64,000 nucleotides of DNA from an uncultured virus (IMG/VR IMGVR_UViG_3300017642_000089) (IMGVR_UViG_3300017642_000089); one strand, 5' to 3'; numbered from the stretch's first letter, positions 44,668-49,871 are shown. A program made the numbers and translations. Notes: generated by a model not told the origin, from the letters alone.

Positions 44668-46240
44668 CGCCATCAACGCGGCCGTAACGGCCTTCAAGGG
44701 CGGCCAGGCCGAGGGCGCGATGCAGACGCCCACCCTGGCCGCGCTGCACAACCGCTACATCGAGAGTCTGACCGGCGGGCTGACCCCGGACCGGCTGGAG
44801 CGCATCCTGCGCGCCGCCGACCAGGGCGACATCGTGCCCCAGCATGAACTGTTCGCGGACATCGAGGACCGGGACGAGCACATCCACGCCGAACTGTCCA
44901 AGCGCCGCCGGGCGCTGCTGGCCGTACCCTGGCGGGTGGTGCCGGGCCGGCCCGACGACAAGCGGGCCGAGGCCGTGGCGGCGGCCGTACGCGAGCAACT
45001 GGCCACCGTGGCCGATTTCGAGGACGTGCTTTTGGACATGGCCGACGCCGTGGGCCACGGATTTTCTTGCCTGGAGATCGAATGGGCCTTCGACGGCGGC
45101 CTGCATCTGCCGGCGGCCCTGCATCACCGGCCGCAAAGCTGGTTCCAGCTGGCCCCGGACCTGGAGACGTTGCGCCTGCGCGACGACAGCATGGACGGGG
45201 CCGAGCTGTGGCCGTTGGGGTGGATCGTGCACCGCCACCGCTCCAAGTCGGGCTGGTTCGCCCGGGCCGGCCTGTTCCGTGTGCTGGTCTGGACCTACCT
45301 GCTCAAGCAGTATTGCCGGGGCGACTTCTCGGCTTTTCTGGAAGTCCACGGCATGCCCATGCGCCTGGGCAAGTATCCGTCCGGCACCAGCGACGAGGAG
45401 CAGAAGGTGCTGCTGTCCGCCTTGCAGGCCTTGGGGCATGACGCGGCCGGCATCGTGCCCGACGGCATGATGATCGAGTTTCACGAGGCGGCGCGCGGCA
45501 GCGAAAAGCCGTTTCTGGCCATGCACGAGCTGTGCGAGACCGGGCAGTCCAAGGCCATCCTGGGCAGCACGCTCACCACCGACACCAAGGGCGTGGGCAG
45601 CCAGGCCCTGGGCGAGATTCACAACGAGGTGCGCCTCGACATCCGCGACAGCGACGCCCGGCAGATCGCCGGCACGCTGACGCGGCAGTTGCTCGCGCCC
45701 CTGGCCGTGCTCAACGCCGGCGTGACCGACGCGGGCTTGCTGCCCCGGTTCGTCTTCGACACCGCCTGCCCCGAGGACCTGGAAAAACTGGCCAACAGCC
45801 TGCCCAAGCTGGCGTCTGTCATGCGCATTCCGGCAACCTGGGCGCACGAACGGGCCGGCATCCCCATGCCCGAGGGCGGCGAGCCGGTGCTCGGCGCCCC
45901 GTCCGACGCCGGAAAAGACGCGGGAAGCGACACCGCTCCGGAGCCGGCCACGGCGGCCCTTGCCGCTACGCCGGGCGAGGACGGCGCGTCCGGCTACCCG
46001 GACCAGGACGCCGTTGACGCGGCTACCGTGCCGGACGCCACGCTCACTGCACTGGCCCGTGACCTGCTGGCGCCGCTTTTGGCCGAGGCGACCTCCGGCA
46101 CGTCGCCCGAGGCGCTCCTCGGCAAGCTGGCCGAAGTGTACCCCAGGATGGACACGGCGGCGCTGGAAGAGTTGTGCGCCCGGGTGTTGTTCGTGGGCGA
46201 GCTGTGGGGGCGGCTGTCCGTCCAGGACGAGGCCGATTGA
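44648..46240 (+). CDS. Portal protein (Mu gp29/DUF935)
   Basis: DAVGHGFSCLEIEW, GMPMRLGKY, SKAILGSTLT, HNEVR. Confidence 0.92.
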   Translation: MLTRMINAINAAVTAFKGGQAEGAMQTPTLAALHNRYIESLTGGLTPDRLERILRAADQGDIVPQHELFADIEDRDEHIHAELSKRRRALLAVPWRVVPGRPDDKRAEAVAAAVREQLATVADFEDVLLDMADAVGHGFSCLEIEWAFDGGLHLPAALHHRPQSWFQLAPDLETLRLRDDSMDGAELWPLGWIVHRHRSKSGWFARAGLFRVLVWTYLLKQYCRGDFSAFLEVHGMPMRLGKYPSGTSDEEQKVLLSALQALGHDAAGIVPDGMMIEFHEAARGSEKPFLAMHELCETGQSKAILGSTLTTDTKGVGSQALGEIHNEVRLDIRDSDARQIAGTLTRQLLAPLAVLNAGVTDAGLLPRFVFDTACPEDLEKLANSLPKLASVMRIPATWAHERAGIPMPEGGEPVLGAPSDAGKDAGSDTAPEPATAALAATPGEDGASGYPDQDAVDAATVPDATLTALARDLLAPLLAEATSGTSPEALLGKLAEVYPRMDTAALEELCARVLFVGELWGRLSVQDEAD

Positions 46241-47499
46241 TGCCCGAACCCGTTTCCCTTTCCTTCGCCATGGGCCTGCCGCCCAAGGATGCGGTCGCCT
46301 ATTTCGAGGGCAAGGGCTACCGCGTCACCTTCGACTGGAAGGAGCTTGACCAGGCCGCCCACGCCACGGGCTTCACCATCGCCAAGATGGCGCAAGCGGA
46401 CATGCTGCGCGACGTGCAAAGCTGCCTGACGCAGTGCCTTACGGAGGGCAAGACCGAAGACTGGTTTCGCAAGCGGATGGAACCGTACCTCAGGGCGCGC
46501 GGCTGGTGGGGGAAGCAGCCGATGATCGACCCGCGCACCGGCGAGGAGCGGCGCGTGCAGCTCGGCAGCCCGGCCAGGTTGCGGCTCATCTATCGTCAGA
46601 ACATGCAGACCGCGTTCATGGCCGGCCGCTACAAGCAGATGCTGGAGAACGCCGACGCCCGGCCGTGGTGGCAGTACGTGGCCGTGCTCGACGGCAAGAC
46701 CCGGCCGTCCCACAAGGTGCTTTCCGGCCGCACCTTCCGCTACGACGATCCTTTTTGGGCCAGCCACTACCCGCCCAACGGCTTCAACTGCCGCTGCCGG
46801 GTGCGGGCGCTTTCCGACTTCCGCCTGGACAAGGAAAAGGTCACCCCGGAGTCCGGCGTGGGCAACATGGTGACCGAACAGGTGGCCGTGCCGGACAGCG
46901 CAACCGGGGAGGTGCAGCGGCGTACGGTGACCGGCTACCGCGTGCCGCAGTCGGGCTATGTTGTGTTCACGGACGTCGGCTTCTCGGCCAATGCGGGGGC
47001 GTCCTGGCTGGGCGGCGCGCTGGCCGAACTGACGCGCACGCTCGACGCCGCGCCGGCGGAGGTAGCCCGGCTGGCCGTTAGGGACATGGTGACCGGTCCG
47101 GCCCTGCCGCAGTGGCTCACGCGCCCGGCCGGACCGTTTCCCCTGGCCGTTCTGCCGGAGGCGGACGCCGCGCTGGTCGGTGCGCGTTGCCGGGTGGCCC
47201 GTTTGTCGCCCGAAACGGCCGGCAAGCAGGCGTCGCGGCATCCCGAGCTGGCGGCGGCCGATTACGCCAAGGCGCAAGCGGCTGTGGATGCGGGCGAACG
47301 GGTGCAGGACGGGAAGCACAGCCTGGTCTATGTGCTGGACGAGCCCGGCGGCGTGGTTGTGGTGGTCAAGGCCACCCTGGAAGGCGGGGAATTGTACGTG
47401 CAGAGTCTGCGTCGGATGAGCGCCAAACAGGCCGAGCGAGACGAGGTTATCCGGCGCGTCAAAAGAAAAAGCGCCCGCCTGGGAAAAGACGAGCGCTAA
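46240..47499 (+). CDS. MuF (gp30) head morphogenesis protein with C-terminal PBECR-like extension
   Basis: VLDGKTRPSH, YPPNGFNCRC; extra ~130 aa with KQASRHPEL..VVKAT..ELYVQSLRR. Confidence 0.88.
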   Translation: MPEPVSLSFAMGLPPKDAVAYFEGKGYRVTFDWKELDQAAHATGFTIAKMAQADMLRDVQSCLTQCLTEGKTEDWFRKRMEPYLRARGWWGKQPMIDPRTGEERRVQLGSPARLRLIYRQNMQTAFMAGRYKQMLENADARPWWQYVAVLDGKTRPSHKVLSGRTFRYDDPFWASHYPPNGFNCRCRVRALSDFRLDKEKVTPESGVGNMVTEQVAVPDSATGEVQRRTVTGYRVPQSGYVVFTDVGFSANAGASWLGGALAELTRTLDAAPAEVARLAVRDMVTGPALPQWLTRPAGPFPLAVLPEADAALVGARCRVARLSPETAGKQASRHPELAAADYAKAQAAVDAGERVQDGKHSLVYVLDEPGGVVVVVKATLEGGELYVQSLRRMSAKQAERDEVIRRVKRKSARLGKDER

Positions 47500-47503
47500 A
47501 AAC

Positions 47504-47615
47504 CGTGGTGGAAGGCGAGGCCCCCTATCCGCTTTCGCGGCAACCTCGCATGGCGCTCCGGGCGGCTGCCCGTGCTACGGCCAGGGGAATGGCACCGTGT
47601 CACATCCACCGTACG
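47504..47615 (+). ncRNA. Predicted structured RNA (multi-stem with pseudoknot)
   Basis: Nested stems fill the F-G intergenic region; see findings. Confidence 0.45.
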
Positions 47616-47625
47616 AGACATAGCC

Positions 47626-48108
47626 ATGATCGAAGTCGAAGTAAACATCGCCGGGCTGGAGGCGCTGCTCGGTCGGGCCATTGCCCTGGGTGCGGACATG
47701 ACGCCCATTACCCGCGCCCTGGCCGGCGTGCTGGCCGACATCCCGGAACGGGCGTTCGCCAACCAGGCCGATCCGGTGACGGGGCAGGCCTGGGCGCCGT
47801 TGAAACCTTCCACGGTTAAGCGTCGGGGGAGCGCCACGCCGATATTGCAAGTCAGCGGCCACCTGGCCGGCTCCATGCAGAGCGAATCCGGGCCGGACTT
47901 CGCCCGCGTGACCACGGCCACGGTCTACGCCCCCACCCACCAGAACGGCGCGAAGAAAGGCGCCTTCGGCAGCACCAAGCGCGGCCGGCCCATCCCCTGG
48001 GGTGATATCCCGGCCCGCCGCTTCTTGGGCGTCGGTCCCGAGGACGAAGAGGAATTGCTGCAAACGGCCTCCCAAACGCTCCAACGAGTGCTGGCGGGGC
48101 GAGGCTAG
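47626..48108 (+). CDS. Virion morphogenesis protein (Mu G-like)
   Basis: WAPLKPST, YAPTHQNG, IPARRFLG. Confidence 0.88.
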   Translation: MIEVEVNIAGLEALLGRAIALGADMTPITRALAGVLADIPERAFANQADPVTGQAWAPLKPSTVKRRGSATPILQVSGHLAGSMQSESGPDFARVTTATVYAPTHQNGAKKGAFGSTKRGRPIPWGDIPARRFLGVGPEDEEELLQTASQTLQRVLAGRG

Positions 48109-48250
48109 GGGGAAGGGAGTAGGATGGATTTTAACGGGGGGTTAACGGGGTTTATCGCAGAGTTAATACTCGACAATGCGTTGCCGCCAGTATAGTTTTA
48201 AAAAAATTAATATTAGACCTCCAATAAGTAGCCAGGGGTGGAAGAGAAAT

Positions 48251-49810
48251 ATGTCTCGCAAGAAATCAGCAGATTATTCAAAGCTTCGAAGTATTATTCA
48301 AGAAAATTTGAGAGTTGAATGCGAGAGTACTAAGGATTTAATATATATTGATAGTGGGAATGAAGTCCAAGATATTTGCACACGCCAAAATCATGTTGTT
48401 TTTGCTCGTCGTGGATGTGGAAAAACATTACTACTTCATTATTCTGCGCGAGTATTAAATAATGACATAAAGGCTATTTATTTAAATTGCGAAGATTTTA
48501 AGCAGCATTCTTTCCCAAACGTACTTATCGAAATATTTGATGCTATTTTTAAAGAATTATTAAAAAATCTACATGGTTGGTTCGGAAGAAAAAAGAAGTT
48601 AAGGCAGATTGTAAAAGAAATTATAGACGAGTTAAGCTCTCTTCGTGAGACAGAAGATATATCAGATATTCAGGTAACAACAAAGACATCATCTGAGGAG
48701 GCCAAAAAAGTAGACTTTACAGCAGGGTATAATGCAAAAAAATTTGGCTCTTTGGAGATTGGAGCACAGACTGGTGCTAATCGCAAAGAAGATATTGAAA
48801 AAAATTTCTATACAAAAACAGATAAATTACAAAGAATCGATTTACGCCTTCCATGGTTTAAACAAAAAATACGAGAATTCTTTGAGATATCAAGCAATGT
48901 TAAATTTATTTTTTTGCAGATTGACGACTTCTACCATCTAAGACAAGAGGATCAGCCATATGTAGTTGATTATATACATAGGCTTTGTAAAGATGTCCCC
49001 CTCTTTTTTAAAATTGCTACTCTTAGGCATGTCTCTGTACTTTATTCTGATCATAAGGGACAACCAATAGGTGCACAGGAACGCCACGACTATCAACCAA
49101 TTAATATTGATTATACATTTGAAGATTTTCAAAAAACAAAAAACAAGAATAGACAAATTTTCCATCAGTTTGGTGAGCTTGCGGGGATTAAATCAACAGA
49201 ATTTGACACACTATTTTTTAAGGGGGAGGGCTTTGATCGGCTTGTATTAGCAGGCGGTGGTGTCCCGAGGGATACTTTGTCTCTCTTTTTAGAGGTTTTT
49301 AGCAATGTACAGCAAAATAGTGATGATCGTATTGGGAAAGATGATGTTCGTATCCTTAGCAAAGCAAATTTTGAACATCTCATTCAGGAATTAAAAAATG
49401 ACTCTGAGCTTATTGAACAGGAGCCACTTGTAAAAGCAATTTATGTAATCAGAACATTTTGCATGGAAAAACGGACAAGTATTTTTTTAGTTCAAGAGCA
49501 AACCTTGCAACAAGAGGATGCATTTCATAGAGTTATTTATAGATTGCTAGATTATAGAATAATACACACAGCTGCAACTGCACTTACCCATAAATCAAGA
49601 GAGGGAACCTATCAGGCTTTTTTAGTAAATATTGGTTGTTATGCCCATCTTCGAAAGCTTGATAAAAAAATTAACGAGATAGATTTATCTTCACCTACTG
49701 CCAAAGATAAGATGCGATCTGCTCCTATCCTTGAATTAAACCAGTTTAATACTCAATTTAAGCAGGCTCCAGACAATGTGGAACAAATACTAATTACAGA
49801 AGAAAACTAG
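48251..49810 (+). CDS. Low-GC moron, ORC/CDC6-like AAA+ ATPase
   Basis: ARRGCGKT Walker A, FLQIDDF Walker B, GGVPRD. Confidence 0.8.
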   Translation: MSRKKSADYSKLRSIIQENLRVECESTKDLIYIDSGNEVQDICTRQNHVVFARRGCGKTLLLHYSARVLNNDIKAIYLNCEDFKQHSFPNVLIEIFDAIFKELLKNLHGWFGRKKKLRQIVKEIIDELSSLRETEDISDIQVTTKTSSEEAKKVDFTAGYNAKKFGSLEIGAQTGANRKEDIEKNFYTKTDKLQRIDLRLPWFKQKIREFFEISSNVKFIFLQIDDFYHLRQEDQPYVVDYIHRLCKDVPLFFKIATLRHVSVLYSDHKGQPIGAQERHDYQPINIDYTFEDFQKTKNKNRQIFHQFGELAGIKSTEFDTLFFKGEGFDRLVLAGGGVPRDTLSLFLEVFSNVQQNSDDRIGKDDVRILSKANFEHLIQELKNDSELIEQEPLVKAIYVIRTFCMEKRTSIFLVQEQTLQQEDAFHRVIYRLLDYRIIHTAATALTHKSREGTYQAFLVNIGCYAHLRKLDKKINEIDLSSPTAKDKMRSAPILELNQFNTQFKQAPDNVEQILITEEN

Positions 49811-49819
49811 TTTTCTCTT

Positions 49820-49871
49820 CTGAACCCCTTCACCTATCGCTTCGCCCCCGTCCGCCACTAGCGTGGCGGAC
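49820..49871 (+). promoter_or_regulatory. Late promoter motif 2 (protease-capsid-tail operon)
   Basis: Same 19-bp motif; TAGCGT 26 bp after the palindrome; ATG 7 nt later. Confidence 0.75.

Follow-up and report, generated by a model that had tools for sequence, protein, structure and literature searches.

What takes the place of an immunity gene behind a phage head protein that ends in a nuclease-like domain? The question is raised by 64,000 nucleotides of DNA from an uncultured virus (IMG/VR IMGVR_UViG_3300017642_000089), here called the window, in which the gene of a MuF protein with a predicted RNase tail is separated from the next gene, gpG, by 126 bp (47500-47625). MuF toxins have been described by Jamet et al. 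2017 (PMC5576092). The window protein shares with the systems outlined there the MuF domain at the N terminus, at the C terminus an extension that is no shorter than 100 amino acids (aa) and has a predicted nuclease fold, and the setting in a temperate Mu-like phage. Their immunity is attributed to a short open reading frame (ORF, <150 aa) immediately downstream, whereas in the window the next gene is gpG, 160 aa long and structural, and where the immunity ORF would stand there is the gene of a structured RNA, which probably lies on the opposite strand. According to the same outline, the MuF tails of proteobacterial phages are often of unknown nature (Ct_MAD) and were left unexplained. The present analysis bears on the question common to this paper and to that of Iyer et al. 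2017 (PMC5512222), namely the role of the C-terminal domains of proteobacterial MuF proteins and the survival of the producer.

A preliminary description of this DNA had proposed a MuF protein with a nuclease-like tail followed by a pseudoknotted RNA instead of an immunity ORF. Its core has held: the pseudoknotted RNA, the missing immunity ORF and the BECR-type (Barnase/EndoU/colicin/RelE-like) tail are all borne out, whereas the strand that it assumed and the confinement of the RNA to MuF are not. Its coordinates (46240 to 47625) were right apart from the frame, the MuF coding sequence covering 46240-47499. It had seen no convincing ORF in the gap, and an ORF scan together with the alignment of homologues finds no conserved one there. 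The gap is crossed only by long alternative-frame ORFs, as is typical of DNA with 68% GC, and homologous gaps differ through indels of 1-2 nt in loops, which break any reading frame.

The gap encodes a real structured RNA of an undescribed family, and about this we have hardly any doubt. Its core of about 104 nt forms a four-way junction with a pseudoknot between two loops (Table 1), and the evidence is covariation. Across 27 sequences, 94.5% of the cells are paired and 18 of the 36 pairs have changed on both sides, which none of 500 shuffles reaches, and every slid control lies far lower. With 58 distinct sequences the values are 93.7% and 25 of 36, again without an equal in 500 shuffles, and slid controls are paired at 40-48%. 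The alignment of 58 sequences was fitted to a nested covariance model that does not contain the pseudoknot, so that covariation of the latter is independent support: it is 96.4% paired, four of its five pairs are compensatory, and the variants include CUCCC/GGGAG, CUGCC/GGCAG, CCCCU/AGGGG and CUCUC/GAGAG. This loop pairing had been noticed beforehand, as had the helices, all of which are found at the places first named for them; only the CCA/TGG extension of the last stem drops out, not being conserved.

The arms do not contribute equally. In P2, AU replaces GC in one pair (24 against 34 of the 58 sequences) and CG stands against UA in another (32 against 15). P2a is missing from 17 of the 58 members, P3 is poorly paired in a distant subgroup, and P4 is invariant and provides no covariation evidence for or against. 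Several unpaired stretches are near-invariant (in plus-strand reading ACCGUGUC, GCGCUCC and CUACGGC), which suggests a specific tertiary fold or a recognition surface. The dense folding seen at first in the single sequence stands through the covariation and not through its energy: the minimum free energy is -47.8 kcal/mol on the plus strand against -49.0 +/- 3.9 for shuffled sequences (z +0.31), no better than these, and the z of -1.16 for the fold of the putative minus-strand transcript is uninformative. In eight loci, the MuF proteins share only about 70-75% identity, yet the mean column identity of the spacer is 80% and the changes are concentrated in hairpin loops.

The family extends well beyond this virus. 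Over 160 MuF-anchored loci, an nhmmer profile finds the element in 32 and the covariance model R1 in 42, in loci named Desulfovibrionaceae, Nitrospirae, Brocadiaceae, Cupriavidus, Vogesella and Aquitalea; on the 64-kb window R1 gives a single match (47500-47619, 115.4 bits). Rfam 15 contains no corresponding family: the best score in 47200-47900 is suhB, at the chance level of 19.2 bits for a gathering score of 41, and 20 related loci yield no match at gathering score. Full-text literature searches, which did not cover the supplements of the two 2017 papers, returned no description of an RNA beside MuF; a paper on AcrIIIA1 proved to be unrelated. A pseudoknotted RNA family demonstrated by covariation has thus been without annotation in a well-known phage module. 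Two other kinds of element were considered and rejected, a riboswitch, because of the copies found 3' of genes and in either orientation, and a DNA structure of the integron attC or IS-end type, because of the four-way junction and the pseudoknot.

To what is this RNA attached? Among the 160 loci, it follows MuF in 42 of the 52 with a window-type tail and in none of the 108 others. Of the checks suggested in the preliminary description, that for covariation has given the strong signal reported above in both alignments, and that of short MuF genes is equally clear: among 155 complete genes, the RNA is absent after all 50 short MuFs and all 53 long MuFs with a different tail, and present after 42 of the 52 with the window-type tail. 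The median distance to gpG is 2 nt after short MuFs, 105 nt after the other long tails and 135 nt after the window-type tail. We also sampled 151 genomes of Desulfovibrionaceae, the family of locus L003, and searched them with the domain profile and the RNA model; the profile matches 11 genomes and the RNA adjoins the domain in all 11. As for viral contigs, a 20-base core of the RNA occurs in at least 118, and in 73 of the 80 that were fetched MuF lies directly upstream on the same strand; three of the remaining seven have less than 130 nt of upstream sequence.

Tail and RNA also change together. The MuF proteins of L008, L009 and L011 are 57% identical to that of the window over residues 1-258 only, and they carry another tail and another RNA. 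Those of L010 and L012, with 41-43% identity, have the same tail and the same RNA. Tail and RNA are thus exchanged jointly and behave as a cassette, as in toxin-immunity modules. This linkage between RNA and domain is strong but one-sided, copies of the RNA being also found elsewhere, as discussed below.

For the tail, a BECR/PBECR-type RNase fold is supported by profiles and by modelling. The extension of about 130 aa that had been likened by eye to PBECR domains is confirmed by 50 homologues of similar length for residues 285-419, by matches to PF18812 and by BECR matches in VIA-align; phage Mu gp30 can be aligned to the window protein over residues 1-298 only. Within the family S323 and K377 are invariant, T326, K329, Y342 and S389 are at least 90% conserved and H334 is present in most members. 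The conserved K377-A-T379 motif lies on a strand in the predicted structure, and the His follows the first helix with a Lys before it. PBECR3 (PF18812) scores 14.9-16 bits on the window protein (E 0.012-0.026) and matches 13 of 36 family members at E<=1. The best family member, L133, reaches 27.6 bits over positions 7-112 of the 115 in the model (E 2.9e-6). Phage_Mu_F and this weak PBECR3 match are the only Pfam families found on MuF.

When the domain is modelled by itself with AlphaFold (AF2) from 42 sequences, the model has a predicted local distance difference test score (pLDDT) of 90.2 and a predicted template modelling score (pTM) of 0.82, and shows a helix followed by a four-stranded sheet. 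Foldseek returned nothing at E<=0.001 for the whole MuF or for the domain alone, all E values of the domain being above 0.05, and a PDB sequence search gave chance matches only. Exhaustive comparison with VIA-align places BECR RNase toxins first, with BrnT (Z 6.3) and CdiA-CT NC101 (Z 6.1), followed by 7vd7 and CdiA-CT O32:H37 (both Z 5.3), colicin D (Z 4.8 and 4.5) and RelE (Z 4.7). As these Z values are middling, the assignment of the fold rests on their combination with the profile matches.

These features correspond to what has been reported for related proteins. Iyer et al. (PMC5512222) report fusions of PBECR domains to MuF in which, as in colicin D, the first helix carries a His and a Thr/Ser comes later, and predict that such MuF-fused BECR domains are RNases delivered with the DNA; the own tail of Mu gp30 (MuF-C) is presented as an inactive, probably RNA-binding version. 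The window domain shares the fusion to MuF. By sequence, its H334 after the first helix, with the Lys before it, and its K377-A-T379 motif resemble the active-site pattern described for PBECR and colicin D, and H334, K377-A-T379 and S389 may be equivalent to the catalytic positions. It appears as a divergent relative of PBECR3 below the Pfam cutoff, and the passages of PMC5512222 on these domains mention no associated RNA. A 2026 preprint (bioRxiv 10.64898/2026.08.28.747851) groups the PBECRs with the colicin-like BECR domains and lists PBECR3 with those that have a semi-conserved Lys ahead of the His, which K329...H334 of the window domain fits.

The RNA, for its part, has the shape of a tRNA. 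Both are four-arm cloverleaves with a contact between a D-like and a T-like loop (here P1-P4 and the pseudoknot). Read on the minus strand, which is probably the transcribed one, the polarity is also that of a tRNA: the closing stem is stacked on the 6-bp arm, with a linker of 0 nt at the 3' side, and the 3-bp arm takes the D position. On the other hand, a 5-bp Watson-Crick helix joins the loops of the elbow, the loop that closes the central arm is small and variable and is no anticodon loop, and the T-loop sequence (UUCRANY) is absent in the window and in the main group; the corresponding loop begins with UUCAA on the minus strand in L012 and L016 only.

The RNA had also been likened to type III antitoxins. 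Type III toxin-antitoxin systems (ToxIN, CptIN, TenpIN) share with the window a pseudoknotted RNA beside an endoribonuclease, the lack of a protein antidote and, for the reading proposed here, the logic of an RNA that neutralises an RNase. Their toxins, however, are of the ToxN/AbiEii type and not BECR domains, and their antitoxins consist of short tandem repeats upstream of the toxin gene on the same strand, whereas the window RNA is a single cloverleaf, downstream and probably antisense. Unlike their toxins, the predicted RNase of the window is a domain of a virion protein. Membership in type III was thus rejected on toxin fold, repeat organisation, gene order and strand. Colicin D with ImmD and CdiA-CT with CdiI belong to the closest structural relatives of the domain and are toxins for which the producer needs a cognate inhibitor; in both cases this inhibitor is a protein.

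From this context we propose, tentatively, that the RNA is the partner or immunity factor of the RNase domain, a relation that we hold to be rather less likely than not. MuF, a head-internal protein annotated as DNA pilot, would carry the RNase domain into the next host together with the DNA. The RNA of the gap would be the cognate partner of this domain, a non-cleavable tRNA-shaped decoy or an inhibitor that occupies it; tRNases are among the closest structural relatives of the domain. A sigma-70-type promoter of its own, opposite to the late genes, would supply the RNA in the lysogen, where these genes are silent, and before late expression. The RNA would then shield the producer and kin lysogens, naive cells without it would suffer the RNase, and it would do the job of the immunity protein of other MuF toxins. 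For the whole chain, with the inhibition step, our confidence is likewise rather low.

The locus thus offers a testable candidate for an antidote made of RNA instead of protein. If the RNA binds the domain, RNA antitoxins would extend beyond type III to effectors delivered by virions, and a natural tRNA-shaped nuclease inhibitor would have been found. Even if this link fails, a well-defined RNA family is available for work on structure and function, and the same gap in related phages holds other RNA classes. A broader proposal appears possible to us, if somewhat unlikely: Mu-like phages would generally neutralise MuF-fused RNases by dedicated tRNA-shaped RNAs, each PBECR class (PBECR3-like, PBECR2, MuF-C) having its own RNA class, swapped with it as a cassette, while bacteria and other phages would keep protective orphans. 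If true, a polymorphic-toxin system would for the first time have an immunity factor made of RNA, and a tRNA mimic would be acting as nuclease inhibitor.

Several observations weigh against the RNA being the partner of the domain. The likeness to tRNA is one of shape and topology only: no tRNA model matches the RNA at E<=10 on either strand, and ARAGORN finds 0 tRNA genes in the window. On the protein side, the structural Z values do not exceed 6.3, and PBECR3 stays under the Pfam gathering cutoff of 30 bits. Tail and RNA are physically linked, so that their co-occurrence is expected from adjacency alone and is uninformative about binding. R1 finds nothing in 10 of the 52 loci with the window-type tail; by eye, two of these (L133, L148) look like variants of the RNA and eight have another element. 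Finally, the 151 genomes of Desulfovibrionaceae contain 27 matches to the RNA, in 21 genomes, and the preliminary description had tied the element to MuF too closely: 16 of the 27 copies are not beside a MuF homologue and 10 of the 21 genomes are without the domain. The RNA has therefore a life independent of MuF.

The scores of these orphan copies equal those of the phage copies, 15 lying at 62-125 bits and the weaker one, L167, at 46 bits. Some are found between housekeeping genes. Among their contexts are ybeY/argF and lysR/purD, a site downstream of a Na+/H+ exchanger gene and one beside an HD-GYP gene, further sites next to genes for Fic and DUF4926, behind Mu gpT and close to tape-measure genes; the copies stand 3' of genes, and either orientation to the neighbours occurs. 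One viral contig has the element between an inserted gene and gpI. Two genomes hold tandem pairs of diverged copies away from MuF (L187 and L191 in G044, L170 and L188 in G128), the copies being about 50-60 nt apart with a 13-bp GC-rich hairpin between them; the G128 pair is located between ychJ and a POTRA/BamA-like gene. This pattern fits orphan immunity genes and, equally, an autonomous small RNA with another job.

The latter is the alternative that survives best, and we consider it possible, if somewhat unlikely. The tRNA-shaped small RNA would be unrelated to the MuF tail, acting as a decoy, of the phage or of the host, for tRNA-targeting defence nucleases or as a sponge for a tRNA-binding host factor, and the junction behind MuF would merely accept cassettes. 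Apart from the copies and genomes without MuF or domain, the tandem arrangement, the copies after gpT and near tail genes, the promoter and terminator signals described below and the other RNA classes that fill the same gap beside other tails are in keeping with it. It accounts poorly, however, for the absence of the RNA after all 50 short MuFs, which abut gpG, for the association of each tail class with its own RNA class and their joint swapping, and for the 11 domain-bearing genomes, all with the RNA adjacent.

Some orphan sites have further peculiarities. At L189:1240-1593, in a Desulfovibrionaceae genome, the copy is truncated to 93 nt, without the P3 arm, and follows a Mu-like major head gene gpT and a long hairpin, a position for which the Rfam motif Mu-gpT-DE is reported. 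L176, L188, L191 and L167 share a flanking motif, TTTGAGAC...TTTCGCACGATTTGATAC, about 70 nt away on the model-plus 5' side of the RNA, which we take to be reminiscent of transposase-binding repeats at Mu ends; these copies could sit at the end of another transposable-phage-like element. The copy of L167 (L167:1501-1620, genome G002), apparently decayed, is placed between a sigma-54 response regulator gene and a CHAT-protease/AAA_16 gene. At L183:1501-2248, an orphan RNA stands beside a DUF4926 ORF (E 1.4e-7) and a Fic gene. DUF4926 has been suggested, in the account given by the preprint (bioRxiv 10.64898/2026.08.28.747851), as the immunity protein of another MuF-fused BECR family, and the L183 neighbourhood, a single case, may be an immunity island.

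On which strand is the RNA made? The helices are symmetric between the strands, so that the answer must come from other signals. These point to a small RNA gene on the minus strand, running against the late operon and equipped with a promoter and a terminator of its own, which we consider probable; the RNA is then probably not part of the MuF-gpG mRNA, and the plus-strand reading of the preliminary description was probably the reverse of the real one. A candidate sigma-70-type promoter ends 6 nt before P1 and overlaps the ribosome-binding site and start of gpG. On the other side, directly after the element and within the last MuF codons, lies a terminator-like hairpin on the minus strand, the only such site in 47200-47900, and this hairpin covaries in relatives in spite of its position inside MuF codons.

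Both signals recur in other members. Behind the element, a comparable terminator is seen in about 21 of 37 cases when the minus strand is read, against 0-1 on the plus strand, and in 32 of 122 against 2. A -10-like box is found 3-13 nt before P1 in 74 of 122 on the minus strand (38 of them at 5/6 or better) and in 21 on the plus strand (1 at this level), shuffles giving a mean of 27 and a maximum of 40. It reads TATACT in 19 members and TATAAT in 5, and in several distant members it stands apart from the ribosome-binding site of gpG. When the 29 four-base P2a loops are read on the minus strand, 18 belong to the GNRA type and one to UNCG, whereas none does on the plus strand; these 19 are GAAA, GCAA, GUAA or UUCG, the GNRA variation falling on the free position of the motif. 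Three orphan contexts show, in minus-strand order, the element, a GC-rich hairpin and a U-rich tail. The minus strand is also supported by the cloverleaf with a T-loop on that strand which occupies the gap behind other tails (see below).

A plus-strand cis element of the late mRNA is, in our view, unlikely. It would control gpG translation or mRNA processing and stability, or be a ribozyme whose self-cleavage parts the cistron of MuF from that of gpG. The counts of G.U against A.C pairs are mixed, P3 favouring the plus strand, P1 and the pseudoknot the minus strand. Two fixed positions of P3 form G.U pairs when the plus strand is read (in 32 and 47 of the 58 sequences) and are hence A.C on the minus strand, a signal tempered by the distant subgroup, where P3 no longer persists as a helix. 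Between the end of the element and the ribosome-binding site of gpG there are 5-15 nt, and the orientation to MuF is constant in the phage loci (73/73); both points speak for a cis element. For the ribozyme, one may add that a scattered, sometimes tandem, phage-associated RNA with conserved unpaired nucleotides resembles self-cleaving ribozymes. Further points against the minus strand are that TATGTC of the window does not pass a stricter promoter-scan rule, the scan finding no promoter in the window, that a single terminator-like site is about the level of shuffles (0.7 +/- 0.9) and that orphan copies have weak -10 boxes only. Public RNA data do not decide here: 16 runs contain the L093 stretch as contigs, the four compared give neither strand nor ends nor level, and the point near L093:3501-3523 where a contig of X1 breaks off is uninterpretable. 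Against a plus-strand element stand the tetraloops, -10 boxes and terminators, all of which read on the minus strand, the orphans in both orientations and 3' of genes, and the lack of a match to any known ribozyme or cis-regulatory family in Rfam.

If the transcript is indeed antisense, it could simply be a cis-antisense regulator, tuning MuF and gpG by transcript pairing or promoter interference, with a fold that serves stability only. The overlaps of the candidate promoter with the gpG start and of the terminator with the 3' end of MuF would suit this role. We find it quite improbable, as a covarying four-way junction with a pseudoknot and near-invariant loops exceeds what stability needs, and orphan copies at unrelated loci have no target to which they are antisense. 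That the gap has no function, being a chance fold in a GC-rich spacer or an unrecognised small ORF, can be dismissed almost entirely: the fold energy at shuffle level would agree with it, but the covariation in 27 and 58 sequences has already refuted it, conservation is higher in the spacer than in the coding DNA on its flanks, the 20-base core recurs in the viral contigs and the loop indels break any frame.

Table 1. Features of the MuF-gpG region of the window; positions are counted from the first nucleotide of the window.
Feature	Position	Strand	Basis or remark
MuF, gpF-like minor head / DNA-pilot protein, 419 aa	46240..47499	+	ORF and frame, PF04233, phrog_220
Phage_Mu_F domain, residues 58-188	46411..46803	+	PF04233, 86.8 bits, E 2.2e-24
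BECR-fold, PBECR3-like RNase domain (predicted), about residues 290-419, ~130 aa	47107..47496	+	homologues, profile, AF2 model
Terminator-like hairpin (47470-47497) and T-run (47460-47469)	47460..47497	-	11-bp stem, tail TTTTCTTTTG
RNA core, ~104 nt, four-way junction with loop-loop pseudoknot	47507..47610	- (probable)	model R1, covariation
P1, outer stem	47507..47514 / 47603..47610		7/8 pairs change on both sides
P2, GCGAGG/CCTCGC	47515-20 / 47544-49		encloses 5' strand of pseudoknot and P2a
Pseudoknot CCCCT/AGGGG, 5 bp	47522..47526 / 47583-47587 (P4 loop)		4/5 pairs compensatory, 96-97% paired
P2a, optional hairpin CCGC-TTTC-GCGG	47529-32 / 47537-40		loop TTTC, GAAA on minus strand
P3, TGGCGC/GTGCTA	47551-56 / 47572-77		mostly sequence-conserved
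P3a, GGGC/GCCC hairpin, 3-nt bulge between P3 and P3a	47560-63 / 47568-71		4/4 pairs compensatory
P4, CGG/CCG	47578-80 / 47595-97		loop carries 3' strand of pseudoknot; followed by ACCGTGTC, near-invariant
Candidate sigma-70-type promoter	47617..47645	-	-35 TTTACT (47640-45), 17-nt spacer, -10 TATGTC (47617-22)
gpG, virion morphogenesis / tail completion, 160 aa	47626..48108	+	PF05069 E 3.3e-30; phrog_26

The gap between MuF and gpG is also occupied in phages with other tails. Behind MuF-C-type or unassigned tails, a different element of about 85-95 nt lies in a gap of about 100 nt (L008, L011, L017, L034, L037, L039, L042, L099-L106, L115, L116, L134, L147, L155 and L158). On the minus strand it is a cloverleaf: the acceptor stem has 9 bp, the D arm contains GG, the T arm bears GGTTCGAGTCC-type loops, and a tetraloop (UACG or GCAA) stands where the anticodon loop would be. 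One subgroup has a TATAAT box upstream, and RNAalifold on one subgroup shows U.G wobbles in the acceptor stem. With Rfam, the L017 gap reaches 21 bits for tRNA-Sec, for a gathering score of 47, and the L042 gap gives nothing; among 26 loci ARAGORN makes one call, at L034, which belongs to this sister class.

Two further groups of gaps are worth recording. Strong PBECR2 tails (E 1e-12 to 1e-28) were found at seven loci scanned among ten with gaps to gpG (L021, L026, L027, L035, L048, L062, L131, L142, L144 and L145, of which L131 and L145 were not scanned). In nine of the loci these gaps are 91-136 nt long, while that of L062 measures 530 nt; they have closing stems, and L021 carries a TTTACA-17-TATCCT-like box on the minus strand. 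The eight loci with the window-type tail and another element (L013, L015, L113, L117, L049, L064, L108 and L109) have in their gap a closing stem, a CGGAGG...CCTCCG hairpin and a CTAGACCTCATCA motif, conserved among them; this is possibly a further variant of the RNA. In phage Mu itself (L161, NC_000929 16073-17859), the genes F and G overlap by 4 bases, which leaves neither a gap nor an RNA, and the F protein has a weak MuF-C match of 21 bits.

The surrounding genes of the window form a head module of a Mu-like phage, with portal, MuF, the gap, gpG, an inserted ORF of low GC content and the gpI protease. The portal gene (PF06074, E 1e-104) overlaps MuF by one base of its TGA and the ATG of the latter, residues 5-378 of MuF match phrog_220 (E 9e-88) and gpI corresponds to PF10123. 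The nearest named relatives of the MuF protein come from Fundidesulfovibrio, Solidesulfovibrio and Desulfovibrio, all Desulfovibrionaceae. Between gpG and gpI, the island 48100-49850 has a GC content of 32-36% against 67-73% around it. Its ORF (48176-49810, 544 aa) matches an ORC/CDC6-like AAA ATPase family (PF24389, 30.4 bits), PADLOC giving a weak mad8 match only (E 0.007), and the island looks like a moron-like insertion, perhaps with a defence gene.

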